From the NCBI RefSeq assembly GCF_055900595.2, contig NZ_CM148325.1: 64,000 bases of DNA. One strand, given 5' to 3'. Numbering within the stretch: the stretch's first letter is position 1; every line of letters starts with the position of its first letter. The notes beneath the pieces were generated by a model, which did not search any database, was not told where the DNA came from, and worked only from the letters and a program-made list of their open reading frames with translations. Below are positions 17,287-25,731 of this stretch, in pieces. The position numbers were made by a program, and so were the translations under genes.

Positions 17287-17506
17287 ACTTTGCTCCTTAT
17301 CGGTGGTTAAGATTTACTGGTGCAATAAATGAAAAAAGCCGCGTCTCCCGGAGAAGACGCGGCCTGACGGGTGAAATGAATAAGGTTTATTGTCTGAGAG
17401 GCCTTTCACTGGCGAGCCACGCATTAAGCGGCTTTCCGGTAACAATGGCTGGGGCTGTATTTACCTTTGATATTAATAATGTGCAGAGAAACGCATGGTT
17501 TACTCC

Positions 17507-18421: not shown

Positions 18422-18718
18422 TGTAAATATTCTTCCGTTGTAAATGGCGCTGGAAAATTTCTCATCAGTGAAACCTTCCGGAAGTTTCCCCCCCTTGTAT
18501 GATGTATATCGCCAGTATTTTATTTCATCCCGGCTGTAATTTTTATATTCCCCGGCACGTGCAATAACGCTGACCAGAGATATAAGGCTCATTAATAACT
18601 TTACAGGTAATTTCATAATTAAATTTCCAGTGAGTGAATTGACAGGTGAGGGGTAAAACTTTCTCTCAGGTAATATATATCTGAAAATATTTTCAATAAC
18701 ACCAGACAGGAAAAACAC

Positions 18719-18748
18719 CACCACAGGCGGTGGCGTTTCTTTGGGGCG
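18719..18748 (-). terminator. Rho-independent terminator downstream of the patatin gene
   Basis: Minus strand CGCCACCGCCTGTGGTGGTG followed by TTTTTCC, directly after the stop at 18752. Confidence 0.6.
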
Positions 18749-18751
18749 TCT

Positions 18752-19822
18752 TTATTTAATCCGGGCCATCGCGTTTCTCAGTGCCAAATCTGCCTCTTCC
18801 GTTATATCCAGGCTTTTCTGCAATACCGCCTCTGACCGGGTCAGTGCCTGACGTGCTGCCAGCGGTTTCCGGATATGCTCCATCGCCAGCATCGTGTCTT
18901 CATAGCCCTGCTGACGCCAGGCGTCGGTATGTGCCGATGTAAAACTGAGCAGACCGCCGCTGTTGCCACCATCACCTGCATATTTCAGCCTTTTCCGGGG
19001 ACGGATCTCAAGGATTGTGGTGTCCGGAAAAGCCTGGCGATCCCATAAAGAACCGTCACTCAGATGCGTCACAATCACCATATTGCATCCGGCATCGACC
19101 AGAGGTGTCACAGGGGTATTTCCCTGCATATTTCGCCATCCTCCCATACCACCATCACCGAACATTGTCCCCTGAACCTCACGGGGACGGAACAGCAGGG
19201 GCAGCGCGGCTGACGCAAGCAGAGCCTCTTTCTGCTGTCCGCGGGGCAGGCTCTGGATATGCTGAAAAACGGCGTTTTTCGTGGTTCCGACACCCAGTTC
19301 AGCACGAATGCAGTCAATAATATCCTGCATGCCCCCTTCTGTGGGGTACAGCGACACATACAGCGGTAGCCCGTCTGCCAGAGCATCAGTATCAAGATAA
19401 TGATCCATCAGCGCTGTCAGGGGTTCATCTGACAACAACGGCTGAGCCATCAGATTGTCAAACCCGTTGATTGTCGATATATGGCGAAGAAGCGTCGTAA
19501 GCAGTGCTCCTGCACGTCCGGGGATCTGGCAGAGGTTCATTGCCTGGAACAATTTTTTCAGCAATGAAAAGTAAACCAATCTGTTTACCGACAGCACCTG
19601 ATTATTCCCCAGATGATCCCAGAGCGCCTCCAGGCGTACGGCAGCTTCTGACAGATCGGGAGAGGCCACGATAATGGCACCATTGAATGCGCCAATGCTG
19701 GCCCCTGAAACCATGCTGATCTGTGTACCACACTCTGCCAGTGCCTTAACCACTCCCGCCTGATAAGCGCCCACCGCCCCGCCACCGGACAGCACCAGCC
19801 CCGTTTTCATTTCTGTACTCAT
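18752..19822 (-). CDS. Patatin-like phospholipase
   Basis: Oxyanion-hole LSGGGAVGAYQAG, nucleophile elbow GASIG (GxSxG) and catalytic DGG (FGDGGMGG); start overlaps upstream stop (ATGA). Confidence 0.85.
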   Translation of the reverse strand: MSTEMKTGLVLSGGGAVGAYQAGVVKALAECGTQISMVSGASIGAFNGAIIVASPDLSEAAVRLEALWDHLGNNQVLSVNRLVYFSLLKKLFQAMNLCQIPGRAGALLTTLLRHISTINGFDNLMAQPLLSDEPLTALMDHYLDTDALADGLPLYVSLYPTEGGMQDIIDCIRAELGVGTTKNAVFQHIQSLPRGQQKEALLASAALPLLFRPREVQGTMFGDGGMGGWRNMQGNTPVTPLVDAGCNMVIVTHLSDGSLWDRQAFPDTTILEIRPRKRLKYAGDGGNSGGLLSFTSAHTDAWRQQGYEDTMLAMEHIRKPLAARQALTRSEAVLQKSLDITEEADLALRNAMARIK

Positions 19823-20724
19823 GCAGCCCCCTTCTGAAATATTTCATCGACCATACTTTCAGAGAGGCGTTCTGCAGAGCAGAGGCGAGGCATGCGAACC
19901 GGTAAGTGTTCTGCAGCCTGCGTGGTTGACCAGATCACCGGATGCTGCTCTTCACTGCACCAGTCTCCCAGCCAGTTAATCGCGTCATGCCACTCGTTAT
20001 CTGCCTGCTCCCGGCCCTGACCACCAAGCCAGTCCAGAGTGTTCAGACGCACGGTTGCACTACCGCCACTCTCCTGTGCCATCTGCGTTAATGCTTTATG
20101 TCTGAGAATATCCAGTAGCTGGTTAACCTGGCCTGTTTCGCTCTGACGTATCACATCACCAAACGCGCCCCAGCGAAGCTCTTCAAGTGCCACATAACAA
20201 CGTCCGGCAGGGGAAAATGACGCATATCGCCCGGCGCTCCACCATGAGAATATCTGCTCAAGATGTAACTGCGCCCGCTGAACCTGGTCAACACGGTGGA
20301 GTTTTTCTTCAAGATGATTCAGTTTATGGTGAACCTGATCGGCCAGGGTGAGTAACTGCTCCCGCGTATCTGCGGAATAATGCGCCAGCCTGGCTGTATC
20401 ACTGACCAGTGAACTGACCCTGTCGTTTACCCGGGTAATCGCGTAGTTTGTGGTGGCAAGTGACGTTGTCATCTCCGTCAGCCAGCGCAGGGACGCCTCA
20501 ACGCCCTGTGCAAGCGACGCATTGATGGCATTCTGCCGTGCAGCGCCTTCGCCGGTCAGCCCCTCTTTTAAACGCCGGAAGAACGTGCGCTCTCCGGCCG
20601 TGCGGATATGCTCCTGTGCAACATCGATTCCGTTTGCGAAATCAACCACAAATTTTTCAGGAAGACAGGTGAGTACCTGACATACCCGGTTATCAGCAAT
20701 TTGTTGAATAAATGGTGAAGTCAC
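19819..20724 (-). CDS. Hypothetical 301-aa protein, translationally coupled between the dynamin-like and patatin genes
   Basis: ORF MTSPFIQQIADNRVCQVLTCLPEKF...; no motif recognised; 4-nt ATGA overlaps at both ends. Confidence 0.7.
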   Translation of the reverse strand: MTSPFIQQIADNRVCQVLTCLPEKFVVDFANGIDVAQEHIRTAGERTFFRRLKEGLTGEGAARQNAINASLAQGVEASLRWLTEMTTSLATTNYAITRVNDRVSSLVSDTARLAHYSADTREQLLTLADQVHHKLNHLEEKLHRVDQVQRAQLHLEQIFSWWSAGRYASFSPAGRCYVALEELRWGAFGDVIRQSETGQVNQLLDILRHKALTQMAQESGGSATVRLNTLDWLGGQGREQADNEWHDAINWLGDWCSEEQHPVIWSTTQAAEHLPVRMPRLCSAERLSESMVDEIFQKGAA

Positions 20725-23117
20725 AGCATTGTCTCCAGCTCTTCCCTCAGCGCCTTACTGTCAGTAATGAGCTCAGGAACCCTTTCATTTAATGCCTGAA
20801 GTCGCCCGGTAAGTCGTTCCTGCGCCTGCTGATCGCGTTTATGATCTTCAGAGCTCTGAATCAGCGTGTTACGCAGTTGTTCAACTTTCTCCCTGAATGC
20901 GCAGAAAAAGGCATCGATTTCCTGGCGGACGGGCTGGTTAATATCCTGCTCAATGGATGCCTGCAGCTCCCCGAAATATGCCCGGGTCAGTGACATAACT
21001 TCCTCTCTGACCTTGTTGATATTGATCACGCTGCGACTCACATCCTCGTCATAGTTTTCCCAGCCCAGGTCACTGGTGCCAAACCATCGACAAACGGTTC
21101 CCCATACGCCACTCTGCCGACGGCGACGGGTGACGGTCTCCGTTCTTTCCTCCATAAGCGCACTCAGATTTATTTTTACCGCGAGCCGGGTCTGTAACTG
21201 GCTGACTGCCGGAAAACTGATTTTTACGGTAAAGCCCTCATCCTCCAGGCGGGCATTGATGCGACCGGCAATGTTTTCTGTGGCGTACAGGGCCGTGCCA
21301 CGAAAACCTGTTTCAATCCCGCTGACGATTTTCTCCAGCTCAGGCCGGAACTGTGCTTCAGCCTCACGGTGCAGGCTGGTCACGGTCGATTCGATTTGCG
21401 TCATCAGTTCAAGGGCTTCCCTGCGATCACTGAATTTTATTTCGGGGCTGTCCGGGGCAAAATCTCGTTTCCTGTAATCCTCCCGGCCCTGGTTGTTGAT
21501 ACCGGACCATTGAGAAATTTTCCCCCATAATCCGGACTGAGACCTTCGTTGTTCTGCGTCTTCTTCCTCCAGCATTTGCTGTTCTTTGCGTTTACCGCTT
21601 CTGAAATAGTCATTCAGCTCCTCTTCCAGTGAGGTGCAGACCCCCGTCAGTAATTCCCGGGTTTTAGTATCGATCTCCTCCATGGCCATTCTGACATCAG
21701 TGGTCATCTGCTCCTGACAGTCCGCGATTTCCCGGATATCCGCAAGCAGGCTGGTGATATGCGACTGCAGTGACTGAATGCTTTGCTGTAGCCCCTGATG
21801 GCGTAACAACAGGTATTCACTGATATTTTCTGCATTCTGCATCAGTTTTGCGGCGGCAGAGTCAACCGCCAGTGCCGCAGCTCTGGAATGTGAGCTCTGT
21901 ATGACTTCCGTTATCAGTTGATCGATAAGTGAGCCTTCCCACAGGTCTGTCGCCCCTTCAGTTGCCAGTTCACTGTCTTTACAGACGTATTCTTTTTTCA
22001 TGCAACCGAAGGCACCTCTGATAAAATCATCGACCCAGGCTTCATCAACAGGAAGGGTTCCGTTTTTCCGTAACTCATGAAGCGCACGGTTAGCCAGGTA
22101 TGCCTGGCGTGAGGATCCGGGATAAACGCGGGAGGCGGGCAGCACATTGCTGTTCAGCATTGCCGGAACTTTCTGGCGTACGGCATCTGCCCCATCGCCA
22201 TTGCGGTCTTTCTCATCAAATTTATTGACCAGTACAAACAGGCGGCCGGCTGATACGTCAGCAATGGCATTAAGCTCTTTACGGACGTCTTCATCCGCTT
22301 TTGAGTTCATCTGTGTGTAATCCATCACAGCCAGAACCGCAGAGGCTTTCTGCAGTTGATCCCGCATCATCACTTCCATCTGCGGTTGTCCGGCCTCATT
22401 AGGGCCGGGGGTATCCAGCAGTGTGAGTGTTCCCTGGCATGCATCCATCCCCACCAGATGGCTGAATTCCACGTCGATCACCGGCAGTTTCTGCACTTCT
22501 GCGTATTCATCAAAAGGAAATTCAGTCCCCATTGCCGCAGCAAGACGAACCAGATCGTTTAACGATGCCAGTCCGGTAAAGATTTCCTCCTCCCCGTGGT
22601 ATTCATTTTTGAGCCAGCCATCATCCGTCAGAATATCCAGCAGTTCGCGGGTATCCCCGGTTTGCTGCAGGGTCTGTGCGACCTGCTGTCCTGCCGGGGT
22701 GGCGAGTTTTTCCTGCAGTGTGATTAATAAATTGCGGACAGGCTGAATATGTTCCAGATGGAGAACCGGCTCAGTTTTTCCGGGAACGTGGCGGATGAGC
22801 GTCGGTACAGAGGTCATGGGGCGGTTACGGTTAGGCAGAATTTCCTGCCCCACAATGGCGTTGATGGTGGTTGATTTGCCTGCTTTCATCGTGCCGACAA
22901 CAGCCAGCACCATCTCCCTGCGGGCGGTTTTGATTTGTTCGCCCTCCAGCTCCTCAATTCTTTTCAGTGCTTTCTGTTTATCAAAAAGCAGTCTGTTTTC
23001 GTTCTTACTGTCAGATAACACATCTGGCTCCTCAACCATTTGCCGGAGCAGATTAATGTTCAGTTGCAAAAGTCGGTCGGCTTCATCACAAAGCAGGGCG
23101 ATGTTCTTTTCGTGCAT
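20721..23117 (-). CDS. Dynamin-like large GTPase (bacterial dynamin-like protein, 798 aa)
   Basis: G1 GTMKAGKST, G3 DTPG, G4 NKFD, followed by a long helical, charge-rich stalk region. Confidence 0.85.
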   Translation of the reverse strand: MHEKNIALLCDEADRLLQLNINLLRQMVEEPDVLSDSKNENRLLFDKQKALKRIEELEGEQIKTARREMVLAVVGTMKAGKSTTINAIVGQEILPNRNRPMTSVPTLIRHVPGKTEPVLHLEHIQPVRNLLITLQEKLATPAGQQVAQTLQQTGDTRELLDILTDDGWLKNEYHGEEEIFTGLASLNDLVRLAAAMGTEFPFDEYAEVQKLPVIDVEFSHLVGMDACQGTLTLLDTPGPNEAGQPQMEVMMRDQLQKASAVLAVMDYTQMNSKADEDVRKELNAIADVSAGRLFVLVNKFDEKDRNGDGADAVRQKVPAMLNSNVLPASRVYPGSSRQAYLANRALHELRKNGTLPVDEAWVDDFIRGAFGCMKKEYVCKDSELATEGATDLWEGSLIDQLITEVIQSSHSRAAALAVDSAAAKLMQNAENISEYLLLRHQGLQQSIQSLQSHITSLLADIREIADCQEQMTTDVRMAMEEIDTKTRELLTGVCTSLEEELNDYFRSGKRKEQQMLEEEDAEQRRSQSGLWGKISQWSGINNQGREDYRKRDFAPDSPEIKFSDRREALELMTQIESTVTSLHREAEAQFRPELEKIVSGIETGFRGTALYATENIAGRINARLEDEGFTVKISFPAVSQLQTRLAVKINLSALMEERTETVTRRRRQSGVWGTVCRWFGTSDLGWENYDEDVSRSVININKVREEVMSLTRAYFGELQASIEQDINQPVRQEIDAFFCAFREKVEQLRNTLIQSSEDHKRDQQAQERLTGRLQALNERVPELITDSKALREELETML

Positions 23118-23169: not shown

Positions 23170-23250
23170 ACTACAAACGATCGTTTATAACGATCGATAT
23201 GATAGTAACGATCGATGTATTCTATTAACTTGAGAAACACAACGCAAGGG
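23170..23250 (-). promoter_or_regulatory. Putative promoter with three clustered GATC (Dam) sites; candidate phase-variation switch
   Basis: Minus strand TTGCGT-17 bp-TAGAAT, then CGATCG boxes at plus 23179, 23192 and 23210 within imperfect AACGATCG(T/A)T repeats, about 60-100 nt upstream of the dynamin start. Confidence 0.45.
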
Positions 23251-24159
23251 GACAACCCGGGTATGGCTGCGTTTGCATAGTGTTTTCATGGAGTTAAAAA
23301 TCTGTAACAACAGCCTGGTACATCACCACCGGGTTCAGAAGAAAATCCAGTTCCATACCGCGCGGGCAACAGAGACCACCTAGTCACGGACGGCGCGCAG
23401 AACCGTGCGTGCAACAGAGGCAATGCAGACGCTCTCCGCCGTGTCAAATATCCGGTCCACCGCACCGGTAAACTGTTCACGGGCCTGAGACCGGACAGAC
23501 TCCGTGCGCAGCTCGTCCTGCAGGCGGGTCATCAGGGGACTGGCGGCATGGTCGGGAAGTGCTGTCATGAGCGCACTGACCAGCGTATCCAGTTCCCAGC
23601 CGGTGCGGGCCGATACGGCAACAACCCGATGTACGGGCCGGAACAGACGGAATACCGCCTCCGTTTTTTCGCGAATGTTCTGTGCCTGTGCGGGAGAAGG
23701 CTGAATACCGGCCATATCCCATTCATGGCAGGGCTCCGTTTTATCGGCCTGCATCACCACAAACAGTACCCGCTGATGTCCCCGGTGCAGGATGTGTCGC
23801 CAGAAATACTCATCCACAGACAGGGCACGGTCATCGGCTTTAATCAGCCACAGTACCAGGTCCAGTTCGAGCAGAATGTCACGGTACAGGGCTTCATACT
23901 CTGCATCCCTGTCCCGGCTCTCGCCCACCCCGGGCAGGTCAGTGATAACCATGCTGTGACCATGGCCATTCAGACGGAAGCGCTGCACTTCCCGGGGGCC
24001 GGCGTGAACATCACTGACCGGGGTGACCTCCCCCTGAAACAGCGCATTACAGAGTGAGGATTTACCGGCCCCGCTTTTACCCATAATGCCAGGCACGGGT
24101 TCGTGACTGGTGAGTTTGCGCAGATGTTCGTAAGCGACTCGTCAGAACCGTATTGATAT

Positions 24160-25731
24160 TTACTGAGAGCTCAGATCAACTTTCCAGGGCAACAGATCGC
24201 GTACCCGGTTTGCCGGCCAGTCCTGGATATGTTCAATGACGTAACGCAGCCACTTTTCTGGCTCCACATTGTTCAGACGGCATGTGCCGATCAGCGAGTA
24301 CAACACCGCCGCATGTTCACCACCGCTGTCGGAACCCGCGAACATCCAGTTTTTCCGGCCTACGGCCACTCCCCGTAAGGCGTTCTCTGCGATGTTGTTG
24401 TCGATTTCCACCCAGCCATTACTGCAGTACACGTTCAGTGCATCCCACTGTTTCAGCAGGTATGCGAACGCTTTTGCCGTATCTGAGTGACGCGACAGTG
24501 TTTTCATCTGTTGCTGTATCCAGTCATACAGTGACTGCATCAGTGGCGCGGCTCTGGCTTTTCTTGCCGCCAGACGCTGTTCTGCTGAACAGCCCCGGAC
24601 CTCTGCCTCGATGGCATACAGTTCACCGATACGCTGCAGGGCTTCCGTGGTGATGTAGGTGGGCGCTCTTGCATGCACATCGTGGATTTTTCTCCGGGCA
24701 TGAGCCATACACGCGGCTTCCGTTATTCTGCCGGATTCGTATAACGCCCGGTAACCACCGTAAGCATCGGCCTGAAGCACACCGCTGTAACCGGCCAGGT
24801 GATTTTGTGGATGGATACCTTTCCGGTCCGGACTGTACGCGAACCAGACCGCCGGGGGCATCTGTGAACCGGCGTTACGGTCATCACGGACGTAGACCCA
24901 CAGCCGGGCTGTCCGGGTTTTACCGCTGCCCGGCTCCTGGACCGGGACGGGGATATCATCAGCATGGACTTTACCGGGCATCAGCACATACTGGCGCAGG
25001 ACGTCATACAGCGGCTCCAGCAGTTCAGCAACAGCACCTGTCCAGCGCCCCAGTGTGGCACGGCTCAGCTCCACTCCCTGACGACGGTATATTTCTGACT
25101 GGCGGTATAACGGCAGATGGTCTGCATATTTCCCGGTGACAACATGGGCCAGAAGCCCCGCTCCGGCATAACTGCGTGCAATGGGTTTTGAAGGTACTGG
25201 TGCCTGCACGATATGGTCGCACCGGCAACAGGCCTGTTTCGGACGTTGTGTTTCGATAACCTTAAAGGCGCTGCTGATAAGCTCCAGTTGCTCTGACACA
25301 TCACATCCCAGAGAACTGAGTTCACCACCACAGGCAGGACAGCATTCCTCTTCCGGCCGGATAACCCGGGTTTCACGGGGAAGTGAGGCCGGTAACGGTT
25401 TACGGGCTGAAGACTGGCGCAGGGCGGATGGCAGTACCGGGTCATATTGCTCACCCAGCGTTTCCGCCATTTCTTCCTGAAGTGCGCTGATTCGCTCCTG
25501 TGCTTCCTGTATCTGCCGTTCGGTTTTTGCACGAAGTTTTTCTGAGCTTTTACCGAACTGCATACGTTGCAGTTTCGCAACCAGCGCCTTCAGCCGGTTG
25601 ATTTCGGAAGCATAAGCCGCCACCCGCTGTGAGAGCAGGCGGTTGTATTCAGCCATCTGGCGGATGGTGTCCTGTTGCGTCTGCAACAGTGCCCGCAGGC
25701 GGGCGTTCTCATGAGCAAGTGAGGTGTCCAT
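24160..25731 (-). CDS. tnpC: IS66-family transposase TnpC (Orf3)
   Basis: 523-aa ORF with N-terminal coiled coil, zinc-ribbon CPACGG and C-terminal ...[27 protein letters not shown]. Confidence 0.9.

Follow-up and report, generated by a model that had tools for sequence, protein, structure and literature searches.

A Conserved, Mobile Operon of a Dynamin-Like GTPase, an RdcB-Family Partner, and a Patatin-Like Phospholipase in Escherichia coli and Other Proteobacteria

A stretch of 64,000 nucleotides of contig NZ_CM148325.1 (NCBI RefSeq assembly GCF_055900595.2), referred to below as the window, carries on its minus strand an E. coli island operon of three genes, which encode a dynamin-like GTPase, a protein of the RdcB/YjcZ family, and a patatin-like phospholipase. 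Judged by homology over their full lengths, the first two genes correspond in diverged form to the rdcA-rdcB pair of E. coli K-12 and are accompanied by a lipase gene in a strictly conserved order. With roughly even chances, the products would constitute a GTPase-adaptor complex controlling a membrane lipase, in an anti-phage response or in a broader response to envelope insult; a defense or toxin function of the operon is plausible. The first-pass annotation of the window had treated the operon as unnoticed, while it had in fact already been flagged as a putative defense operon in a 2026 paper (PMC12922286), and descriptions of islands mention it as well (PMC13182975). The present analysis adds the strict dichotomy between triad and pair and the breadth of the triad, the link of an RdcB-like domain and a patatin to JukA, the association with a WYL regulator, and an agn43-type switch.

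Operon Layout

The three open reading frames (ORFs) lie at exactly the coordinates predicted in the first-pass annotation (Table 1). Each product has a Pfam match (Dynamin_N, 1.6e-17; YjcZ, PF13990, 4.7e-70, model positions 1-272 of 272; Patatin, 3e-23), and the ORFs are therefore real genes and not chance reading frames. The full-length YjcZ match also assigns to a family the 301-aa protein that had been described as unknown. Neighboring genes overlap by 4 nt. Between the stop codon of the RdcB-like gene and the start codon of the patatin gene, the overlap is ATGA, as annotated; at the junction of the dynamin and RdcB-like genes, it is GTGA instead of the ATGA that had been presumed, because the 301-aa gene begins with GTG. 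The same start codon is chosen by the Prokaryotic Genome Annotation Pipeline (PGAP) in identical genomes. The terminator predicted after the patatin gene is a genuine hairpin, the core of which folds with a dG of -20.6 kcal/mol (z = -4.1; none of 200 shuffled sequences folds equally well). Both the overlaps and the gene order conserved across genomes bear out the proposed coupling of the three genes into one unit.

Table 1: Features of the operon and its surroundings in the window.
Feature	Coordinates	Strand	Basis and remarks
Dynamin-like GTPase gene, 798 aa	20721..23117	(-)	paralog of CrfC/RdcA by Pfam, NCBIfam, and K-12 comparison
RdcB/YjcZ-family partner gene, 301 aa	19819..20724	(-)	GTG start overlapping dynamin stop; Pfam YjcZ
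Patatin-like phospholipase gene, 356 aa, predicted cytoplasmic	18752..19822	(-)	Pfam Patatin; ATGA overlap onto RdcB-like gene
Intrinsic terminator hairpin 3' of patatin gene	18711..18740 (about)	(-)	GC-rich stem, A-tract and U-tract on either side
Three GATC-bearing repeats AACGATCG(A/T)T	23175..23216	(-)	repeat family D1; agn43/flu regulatory homology
Sigma-70 promoter-like site TTAATA-18-TATCAT	23199..23228	(-)	consensus scan, 9/12 matches
Hypothetical gene 3' of the triad, 227 aa	17933-18616	(-)	ORF
Hypothetical gene 3' of the triad, 136 aa	17507-17917	(-)	ORF
Strong terminator after the two hypothetical genes	17336-17365		13-bp stem

Conservation and Coevolution of the Three Genes

A scan of the RdcB-family alignment against one genome per species (100,044 species) yielded 79 loci. 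The dynamin gene is found directly 5' of the RdcB-family gene in every one of these loci having upstream sequence. A patatin gene follows immediately 3' in 32 loci, mostly with 4-nt overlaps, and all 32 keep the order dynamin, RdcB-like, patatin, which is the outcome of the synteny survey that had been suggested in the first-pass annotation. The sources of these triads are Escherichia, Pantoea, Erwinia, Serratia, Budvicia, eight Pseudomonas, Chromatiales, Marinospirillum, HdN1, and several Burkholderiales and Nitrosomonadales; in the species scan, triads are thus confined to Gamma- and Betaproteobacteria. The other 47 loci represent the core rdcAB pair without a patatin and all belong to Enterobacteriaceae. 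In a neighbor-joining tree of the concatenated dynamin and RdcB-like proteins, pairs and triads form separate clades, the former narrow in taxonomy and the latter deep. Rooting was attempted as a means of deciding whether the triad or the pair came first; the midpoint root of this unrooted tree falls between both clades and favors neither direction.

Ten more contexts from metagenomes and genomes, including the distant members L098-L100 (L numbers denote individual loci), are also triads. The third gene of L100 was considered as an alternative effector and dismissed; it encodes the same patatin with a 66-residue insert, though it has no Pfam match in the precomputed table. Pairwise distances of the three proteins correlate with r = 0.85-0.88 (Mantel p <= 0.001), and the ratios of nonsynonymous to synonymous substitution rates (dN/dS) between E. 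coli and E. albertii are 0.24 for the dynamin, 0.10 for the RdcB-like protein, and 0.30 for the patatin. The three proteins co-evolve and are under purifying selection; their genes are inherited and selected together.

An additional ORF of 99 aa, which has no Pfam match, is found between the dynamin and RdcB-like genes of L007 (6617-6916; Methylomonas koyamae) and of L008.

The Dynamin-Like GTPase

The GTPase is aligned end to end by the NCBIfam CrfC model NF007368 (CrfC = YjdA = RdcA) with 556.4 bits (E = 1e-166), which is below the equivalog cut-off of 1146 bits, and it is 33% identical to K-12 RdcA over the full length (E = 6e-121). On the basis of this score, this identity, and its position in a separate clade, it is classified as a paralog and not as an ortholog of CrfC/RdcA. 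The G1-G4 motifs (GTMKAGKST, T102, DTPG, and NKFD), three of which had been noted in the first-pass annotation, are invariant in 32 aligned homologs and at least 90% conserved over 75 sequences.

In the AlphaFold2 model of the dynamin (predicted local distance difference test score, pLDDT, 78), a G domain is accompanied by a long helical stalk with two distinct elements, namely, a basic/hydrophobic loop at residues 527-550, which is disordered, and, at residues 656-699, a beta-hairpin-plus-helix element with a basic, Trp-rich motif. In Foldseek, the best matches of the model are SynDLP (1.4e-12), BDLP of Nostoc (6.7e-12), IniA, mitofusins, and the dynamin-like proteins (DLPs) DLP1/2 of Campylobacter, with a probability of 1.0 for SynDLP and BDLP; the template-modeling scores for these two are only about 0.3 owing to the stalk geometry. 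The window GTPase shares with BDLP/mitofusin-class DLPs the G1 P-loop, the G2 Thr, the G3 DxxG, the G4 NKxD, and the helical stalk.

The variable stalk loop is about 30 residues longer in triad dynamins, with a median of 64 residues versus 33 in the core RdcA clade; it starts with a basic stretch followed by a hydrophobic one, and the lead-in to the Trp motif is more basic than in the core clade. The Trp-rich motif itself was rejected as a triad-specific membrane anchor; it is degenerate in K-12 RdcA but well kept in Buttiauxella and Cedecea of the core clade. Of these features, only the longer loop and the more basic Trp lead-in are specific to the triad. According to hydropathy, none of the three window proteins has a transmembrane helix, and K-12 RdcA is reported to be soluble (PMC6510439).

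A variation on this gene is seen in L045 (1290-6356), a metagenome-assembled genome (MAG) of the Synergistaceae, where a single ORF of 1688 aa 5' of the RdcB-like and patatin genes comprises two tandem dynamin paralogs. Residues 42-565 and 878-1681 each match the window dynamin, an arrangement that recalls the fused double dynamin DynA. The labels of this MAG and of a Syntrophomonadaceae MAG (L026) are odd for an otherwise proteobacterial module; a binning error or a transfer is possible.

The RdcB-Like Partner and the Patatin

The RdcB-like protein is 30% identical to K-12 RdcB over the full length (E = 2e-37). In its structural model (pLDDT 69), the N-terminal half is long and coiled, and the C-terminal helical domain, which is compact and confidently modeled, contains most of the invariant residues; a search for structural relatives of the model gave none of significance. 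With a 301-aa protein of the YjcZ/RdcB family and a GTPase paralogous to CrfC/RdcA, two of the three genes therefore belong to a described GTPase partner system.

The lipase motifs of the patatin (GGGAVG, GASIG, and DGG), which had been recognized before, correspond to the GGGxxG oxyanion, GxSxG nucleophile, and DGG/DGA aspartate motifs of patatin-like phospholipases A2 as judged by sequence. Their catalytic positions are invariant in 33 patatins, where the first motif reads GGGA[K/I/V]G; at position 17, E. coli has V, and 26 of the 33 sequences have K. Scores against NCBIfam are low, with 31 bits for RssA and 16.2 bits for the lipase CapV (NF041079; cut-off 200) of the cyclic-oligonucleotide-based anti-phage signaling system (CBASS). 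The nearest solved structures in a PDB search are PlpD (1e-11) and, second best, VipD, with ExoU among the relatives. By these comparisons, the window patatin does not fall within any named group of bacterial patatins and is assigned to a different subfamily with conserved C-terminal motifs of its own. Pfam finds no domain beyond Patatin, hence no autotransporter domain, and the protein is predicted to be a cytoplasmic phospholipase with all three sets of catalytic motifs. The invariance of the GTPase and lipase motifs suggests that both enzymes have been kept active, and with their motifs intact both look active.

Comparison with Known Systems and the Link to JukA

In K-12, RdcA binds RdcB and, in dependence on its own GTPase activity, attaches to the diguanylate cyclase DgcE at the MASE1 domain of the latter; RdcAB is an activating GTPase partner system for DgcE and is reported to be under the control of FlhDC/FliA (PMC6510439). 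Both protein families, the gene order, the 4-nt overlap, G1-G4, the stalk, and the Trp-rich motif are common to RdcAB and the window operon, in which the YjcZ-domain partner gene is likewise found immediately 3' of the GTPase gene and overlaps it. The differences concern location, distribution, and equipment. The K-12 pair is a core two-gene operon next to proP without an effector, and rdcAB is restricted to Enterobacteriaceae; the window operon is located in a CP4-44 island, always with the patatin attached, and triads are mobile and patchy over Gamma- and Betaproteobacteria. The triad forms a separate clade with the longer stalk loop and, in the window, is preceded by an agn43-type switch.

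Like Eleos (LeoA/LeoBC) and Bacillus subtilis DynA, which are bacterial dynamin-like GTPases tied to phage defense, the window GTPase is encoded in a multigene operon on mobile DNA. However, LeoA has no match in the window and LeoBC gives only 19.8 bits (E = 8.8e-5, with no stretch passing alone); Eleos contains neither a YjcZ partner nor a lipase, and the window has a single DLP, a tandem pair being seen only in L045. The resemblance to CBASS CapV and Legionella VipD lies in an intracellular patatin lipase, which in the window operon would likewise need activation by a partner. VipD is activated by Rab5 and provides a precedent for a GTPase switching on a patatin. In contrast to CBASS, the island annotation holds no CD-NTase (cGAS/DncV-like nucleotidyltransferase) or cyclic-nucleotide machinery, and the patatin stays far below the cut-off of the CBASS lipase model.

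A further connection is provided by L102, a metagenomic contig of 1.44 Mb. It has no dynamin; instead, a 532-aa protein is found in which a JukA (DUF3944/YaaW) domain (PADLOC, 246 bits, E = 8e-74) is fused to a full-length RdcB-like domain that is 36% identical to the window protein. The fusion gene overlaps by 4 nt with a patatin gene, whose product is of the same subfamily (38% identity over the full length). JukA is the validated sensor of the anti-jumbo-phage Juk systems, and the fusion partners reported for JukA are a patatin, a GTPase, and a coiled-coil domain of unknown kind (bioRxiv 10.1101/2022.09.17.508391). With the RdcB-like domain and the patatin occurring together in the absence of a dynamin, L102 suggests that the two may form an output module drivable by different sensors. 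The link is suggestive rather than strong, because it is a single fusion case and because the JukA-fused GTPase is of the YeeP type. For the latter reason, the JukA-GTPase fusions were discarded as a tie to the dynamin; their GTPase (31% identity to a YeeP-type GTPase, E = 1e-33) has only the P-loop in common with it. None of the three window proteins matches JukA in PADLOC, and in this the window differs from Juk; JukA is found only in the related L102.

The JukA-fused GTPase domain of metagenomic proteins (P0273 / L103-L105) is homologous to the CP4 backbone GTPase of the YeeP/YfjP/YkfA type (L003, 23336-24208). This hints that GTPases of this type in CP4 islands may have an immune-related role.

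Summarizing the comparisons, the operon falls outside the RdcAB ortholog group, Eleos, CBASS, and Juk, as it lacks a defining feature of each. In its mode of action, it would come closest to immune operons composed of sensor, adaptor, and effector with a patatin as output, such as CBASS CapV and the Juk variants, while by descent it would be a sister of RdcAB.

The agn43-Type GATC Block and Expression of the Operon

Three copies of AACGATCG(A/T)T, each containing one GATC, are located 58-99 nt 5' of the dynamin start codon and are interleaved with the promoter-like site. The motif ATCGATCGTTA is confined to this cluster, with no other copy in the window. The TTAATA-18-TATCAT site is weak alone and is backed only by its position inside the agn43-like region. 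The block with the three GATC sites aligns with the yeeP-flu intergenic region of K-12, that is, the three-GATC region of agn43/flu, as well as with the sequence 5' of cah in strain JP538; the similarity does not extend into the flanks. As in the Dam/OxyR switch of agn43 (flu) on CP4-44, the block comes immediately after a yeeP-like gene. The difference lies in what follows, namely, 58 nt and the dynamin gene in the window, and a long isrC/flu leader and the adhesin gene in K-12. The same GATC cluster is present 5' of the dynamin gene in strain Nissle 1917 and in E. albertii. In JP538, the switch precedes the Ag43-like cah, and the triad comes after cah; the leader in Pectobacterium is unrelated. 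Outside the window, the block was located in L094 (13477-13517), L010 (4509-4549), and L095 (16583-16624).

Phase variation of agn43 is based on Dam methylation of the GATC sites, which competes with the binding of OxyR (PMC3764049). Cargo in this slot of the CP4-like islands appears to inherit the agn43 switch, and we infer from the sequence homology of the block that the triad would be expressed heritably ON or OFF in most E. coli islands.

Mobility and Genomic Context

Among 5426 complete E. coli genomes, 2618 carry the operon, and 2445 of these contain 80% of it or more; up to five copies occur in one genome, and carriers include Nissle 1917, O157:H7, and O104:H4. In the E. coli contexts examined, it occupies the cargo region of CP4-like elements, with the gene for a YeeP-like GTPase on one side and the DUF932-antirestriction-RadC-CbeA/CbtA backbone on the other. 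Its description as mobile cargo of a CP4-type island agrees with the annotation of near-identical genomes, which places it in the CP4-44 slot between yeeA/tmaR and cobU. On conjugative plasmids of the IncF group in Klebsiella, Enterobacter, and E. coli, a variant with 62% identity in the RdcB-like protein is flanked by IS1 and IS30. Outside Escherichia, some copies of the operon lie in an integrase/DUF927 island (Pseudomonas integrase island) or, in Pectobacterium, in a CP4-like island, and others stand alone amid housekeeping genes. Chromosomal sites in Yersinia, Klebsiella, and Methylomonas do not look mobile, and the free-living Methylomonas, Gallionella, and Allochromatium are among the carriers.

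The only recurrent neighbor is the gene for a helix-turn-helix-WYL-WCX regulator, located 5' on the same strand in at least seven loci from four orders. A PADLOC scan of about 30 large flanking ORFs from roughly 22 loci gave a type III restriction-modification (RM) methylase in L010 (948 bits), BrxC of the bacteriophage exclusion (BREX) system in L011 (1385 bits), an SNF2 helicase with a ZacB-like protein in L012 and L048, a type I RM methylase in L033 (626 bits), and PDC-S24 in L052 (592 bits). At least six of these loci thus have a defense neighbor, and this number is a lower bound; the remaining flanking ORFs are housekeeping genes. EcoKI and Druantia are reported near the two operon copies of strain MP1 (PMC12922286).

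Proposed Function and Alternatives

According to the proposed mechanism, the dynamin-like GTPase would bind the RdcB-like adaptor as RdcA binds RdcB in K-12. The GTPase-adaptor complex would sense a change in membrane or nucleotide state upon phage infection or a comparable envelope insult and, depending on this state, would either hold the cytoplasmic patatin off or bring it to the inner membrane. There, the patatin would hydrolyze membrane lipid, either locally, at an injection site or a phage-made vesicle, or globally, as in abortive infection. In the E. coli island of the window, expression of the operon would probably be heritably ON or OFF by means of the agn43-type Dam/OxyR switch. The behavior of the three genes as a unit, the intact enzymes, the precedent of RdcB as adaptor of RdcA, the mobility and patchy distribution, the nearby defense genes, the link to JukA, and the agn43-like switch all point in this direction.

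A number of observations weigh against this mechanism. The PADLOC and NCBIfam defense models give no real match for the three window proteins, the best being LeoBC; to this extent, the initial statement that the pairing corresponds to no named defense system is upheld. The only characterized relative, RdcAB, is a regulator of signaling by cyclic di-GMP (c-di-GMP) and not an immune system. Functional selections on E. coli fosmid libraries, the source of the PD-T4, PD-T7, and PD-Lambda systems included in PADLOC, reportedly missed the operon, common as it is in the species. Neither the module nor a decoy is carried in any of 50,697 phage records, and the fusion of JukA with a YjcZ domain is one case among 5.8 billion proteins. 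At many loci, the neighbors are exclusively housekeeping genes. In the window itself, the flanking genes have zero PADLOC matches and belong to the island backbone (antirestriction, RadC, CbeA/CbtA); the defense-island-like context described in the first-pass annotation consequently applies to other genomes, where defense neighbors do occur, and not to the window. In the lysogen of strain MP1, the operon cluster was the most up-regulated locus whatever the medium and did not track prophage induction (PMC12922286); by analogy with agn43 (PMC3764049), this "induction" could simply come from clones that differ in the ON/OFF state of a phase-variable promoter. Finally, a literature search found no functional study and no experiment showing protection or toxicity.

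An unlikely alternative is a nonimmune role in membrane repair or remodeling, where the DLP would tether, fuse, or seal the damaged inner membrane in the manner of B. subtilis DynA and mycobacterial IniA, and the patatin would provide lysolipid or fatty acid for curvature and fusion, as mitoPLD assists mitofusin. The fold of the GTPase, nearest to the fusion and fission DLPs SynDLP, BDLP, IniA, and mitofusins, would suit this role, as would the longer basic/hydrophobic loop and more basic Trp lead-in of triad dynamins, the absence of transmembrane helices from all three proteins, which is usual for peripheral membrane proteins, and the location of several loci amid housekeeping or efflux genes. 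Of a housekeeping function, however, one would not expect strain variability, multiple copies on islands and plasmids, RM and BREX neighbors, regulation by a WYL protein, or exchangeability with JukA; moreover, a free cytoplasmic phospholipase would be dangerous, and a tightly gated effector fits better. Another alternative is an element-selfish toxin or addiction module, in which a patatin toxin restrained by the GTPase and the adaptor would not defend against phage but would stabilize the island or plasmid or mediate exclusion. Carriage on CP4-like elements beside the CbtA/CbeA toxin-antitoxin pair and on IncF plasmids would be in accordance with it, and coupled translation would fix the stoichiometry of the three proteins. 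Yet the module is very large for a system of this kind, it also occupies the nonmobile-looking chromosomal sites mentioned above, and a phase-variable OFF state is hard to square with postsegregational killing, which makes this explanation improbable.

Still a little less probable is a second signaling system of the RdcAB type, as the PGAP product name "diguanylate cyclase regulator RdcB family" would imply. Its target would be DgcE or another MASE1 protein, through which it would affect c-di-GMP and biofilm formation, and it would fit into a slot that otherwise holds the biofilm adhesin Ag43. Homology to RdcA and RdcB is indeed full length, and the operon sits in the agn43 slot behind an agn43-type switch and together with cah in JP538; but identities are only 30-33%, the GTPase scores below the CrfC equivalog cut-off, the triad forms a separate deep clade, triads occur in Pseudomonas, Chromatiales, Burkholderiales, and others where the scan found no core pair, and an invariant, catalytically intact lipase is left unexplained by a role in regulating a diguanylate cyclase. 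A function in virulence or vesiculation is very improbable. Here, the dynamin would promote the release of outer-membrane vesicles like LeoABC of enterotoxigenic E. coli, or the patatin would be exported and act as a toxin in the manner of ExoU, VipD, or PlpD, which are its nearest solved relatives; the islands bearing the operon do resemble pathogenicity islands. The patatin, though, has neither a transmembrane helix (hydropathy) nor an autotransporter domain (Pfam), none of about 45 loci has a linked secretion system, the free-living carriers are not accounted for, and the matches to LeoBC and LeoA are poor and lacking, respectively.

Control of a lipase by a GTPase-adaptor complex is preferred here as the working model. 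An extended version, which is unlikely if taken as a whole, would see the triad as a GTPase-gated lipid immune effector that is recruited to the phage-perturbed membrane (injection site or early phage vesicles) interchangeably by the dynamin or by JukA. K-12 RdcAB would then be a domesticated offshoot that has lost the lipase and has been rewired to DgcE, and the E. coli module would have acquired an epigenetic bet-hedging switch from agn43.

Neighboring Genes and Further Observations

Two candidates for additional components were considered and rejected. The YeeP-like GTPase as a fourth component is CP4 backbone and degraded in the window, and cah can separate the YeeP gene from the triad. 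In the window, the YeeP-like gene (23380-24096, minus strand) adjoins an IS66-family element (24160-25731); compared with strain WCHEC040047, a deletion of 79 bp has taken away the start codon together with about 26 codons, and a change of TCG to TAG truncates the 3' end. Due to this degradation, the triad needs no such GTPase in cis. A five-gene operon including the two hypothetical genes 3' of the patatin gene (Table 1) was likewise discounted. About 2409 E. coli genomes contain these two genes; Nissle 1917 and JP538 have other small genes in their place, and outside Escherichia they are absent. As the small genes vary between islands, they are outside the conserved unit. Neither product has a match in PADLOC or NCBIfam. 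The 136-aa product has a hydrophobic, signal-peptide-like N-terminal segment. The 227-aa product also has a signal-peptide-like N-terminus, with a second such segment about 65 residues in (MKRLHTLMLFLAVLFTGFNFNAEA), which suggests that this ORF represents two fused small genes or has a miscalled start.

Directly 5' of the triad in Pantoea conspicua (L012, 65-4483) and Erwinia sp. S63 (L048, 53-4471), a conserved pair encodes a 614-aa protein with a weak ZacB match and an 857-aa SNF2 helicase with partial matches to DrmD, DpdE, ZacC, and PDC-M27C. This pair may be a candidate for an undescribed helicase-based defense system.

In an experimental evolution study of E. coli ATCC 25922, 122 "mutations" were counted in crfC, 75 in rssA (the patatin), 10 in yeeP, and 3 in yjcZ (PMC7696260). 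Most likely, these counts reflect mismapped reads or recombination among multiple island copies of the triad and not selection.

Implications

The cassette, to which no function has been assigned, is carried by about half of the complete E. coli genomes, by conjugative plasmids of Klebsiella and Enterobacter, and by many environmental proteobacteria. Should it serve immunity or a response to membrane damage, it would provide the earliest example of a dynamin-like GTPase controlling a lipase effector, and proteins of the RdcB/YjcZ family would gain a general role as adaptors. The K-12 c-di-GMP regulator RdcAB would then appear as a sister clade, lacking the patatin, to a module that is mobile; the unrooted tree favors neither form as the earlier one. 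With an agn43-type switch in front of the operon, expression studies and functional screens may miss or misread the system, depending on the colony picked.

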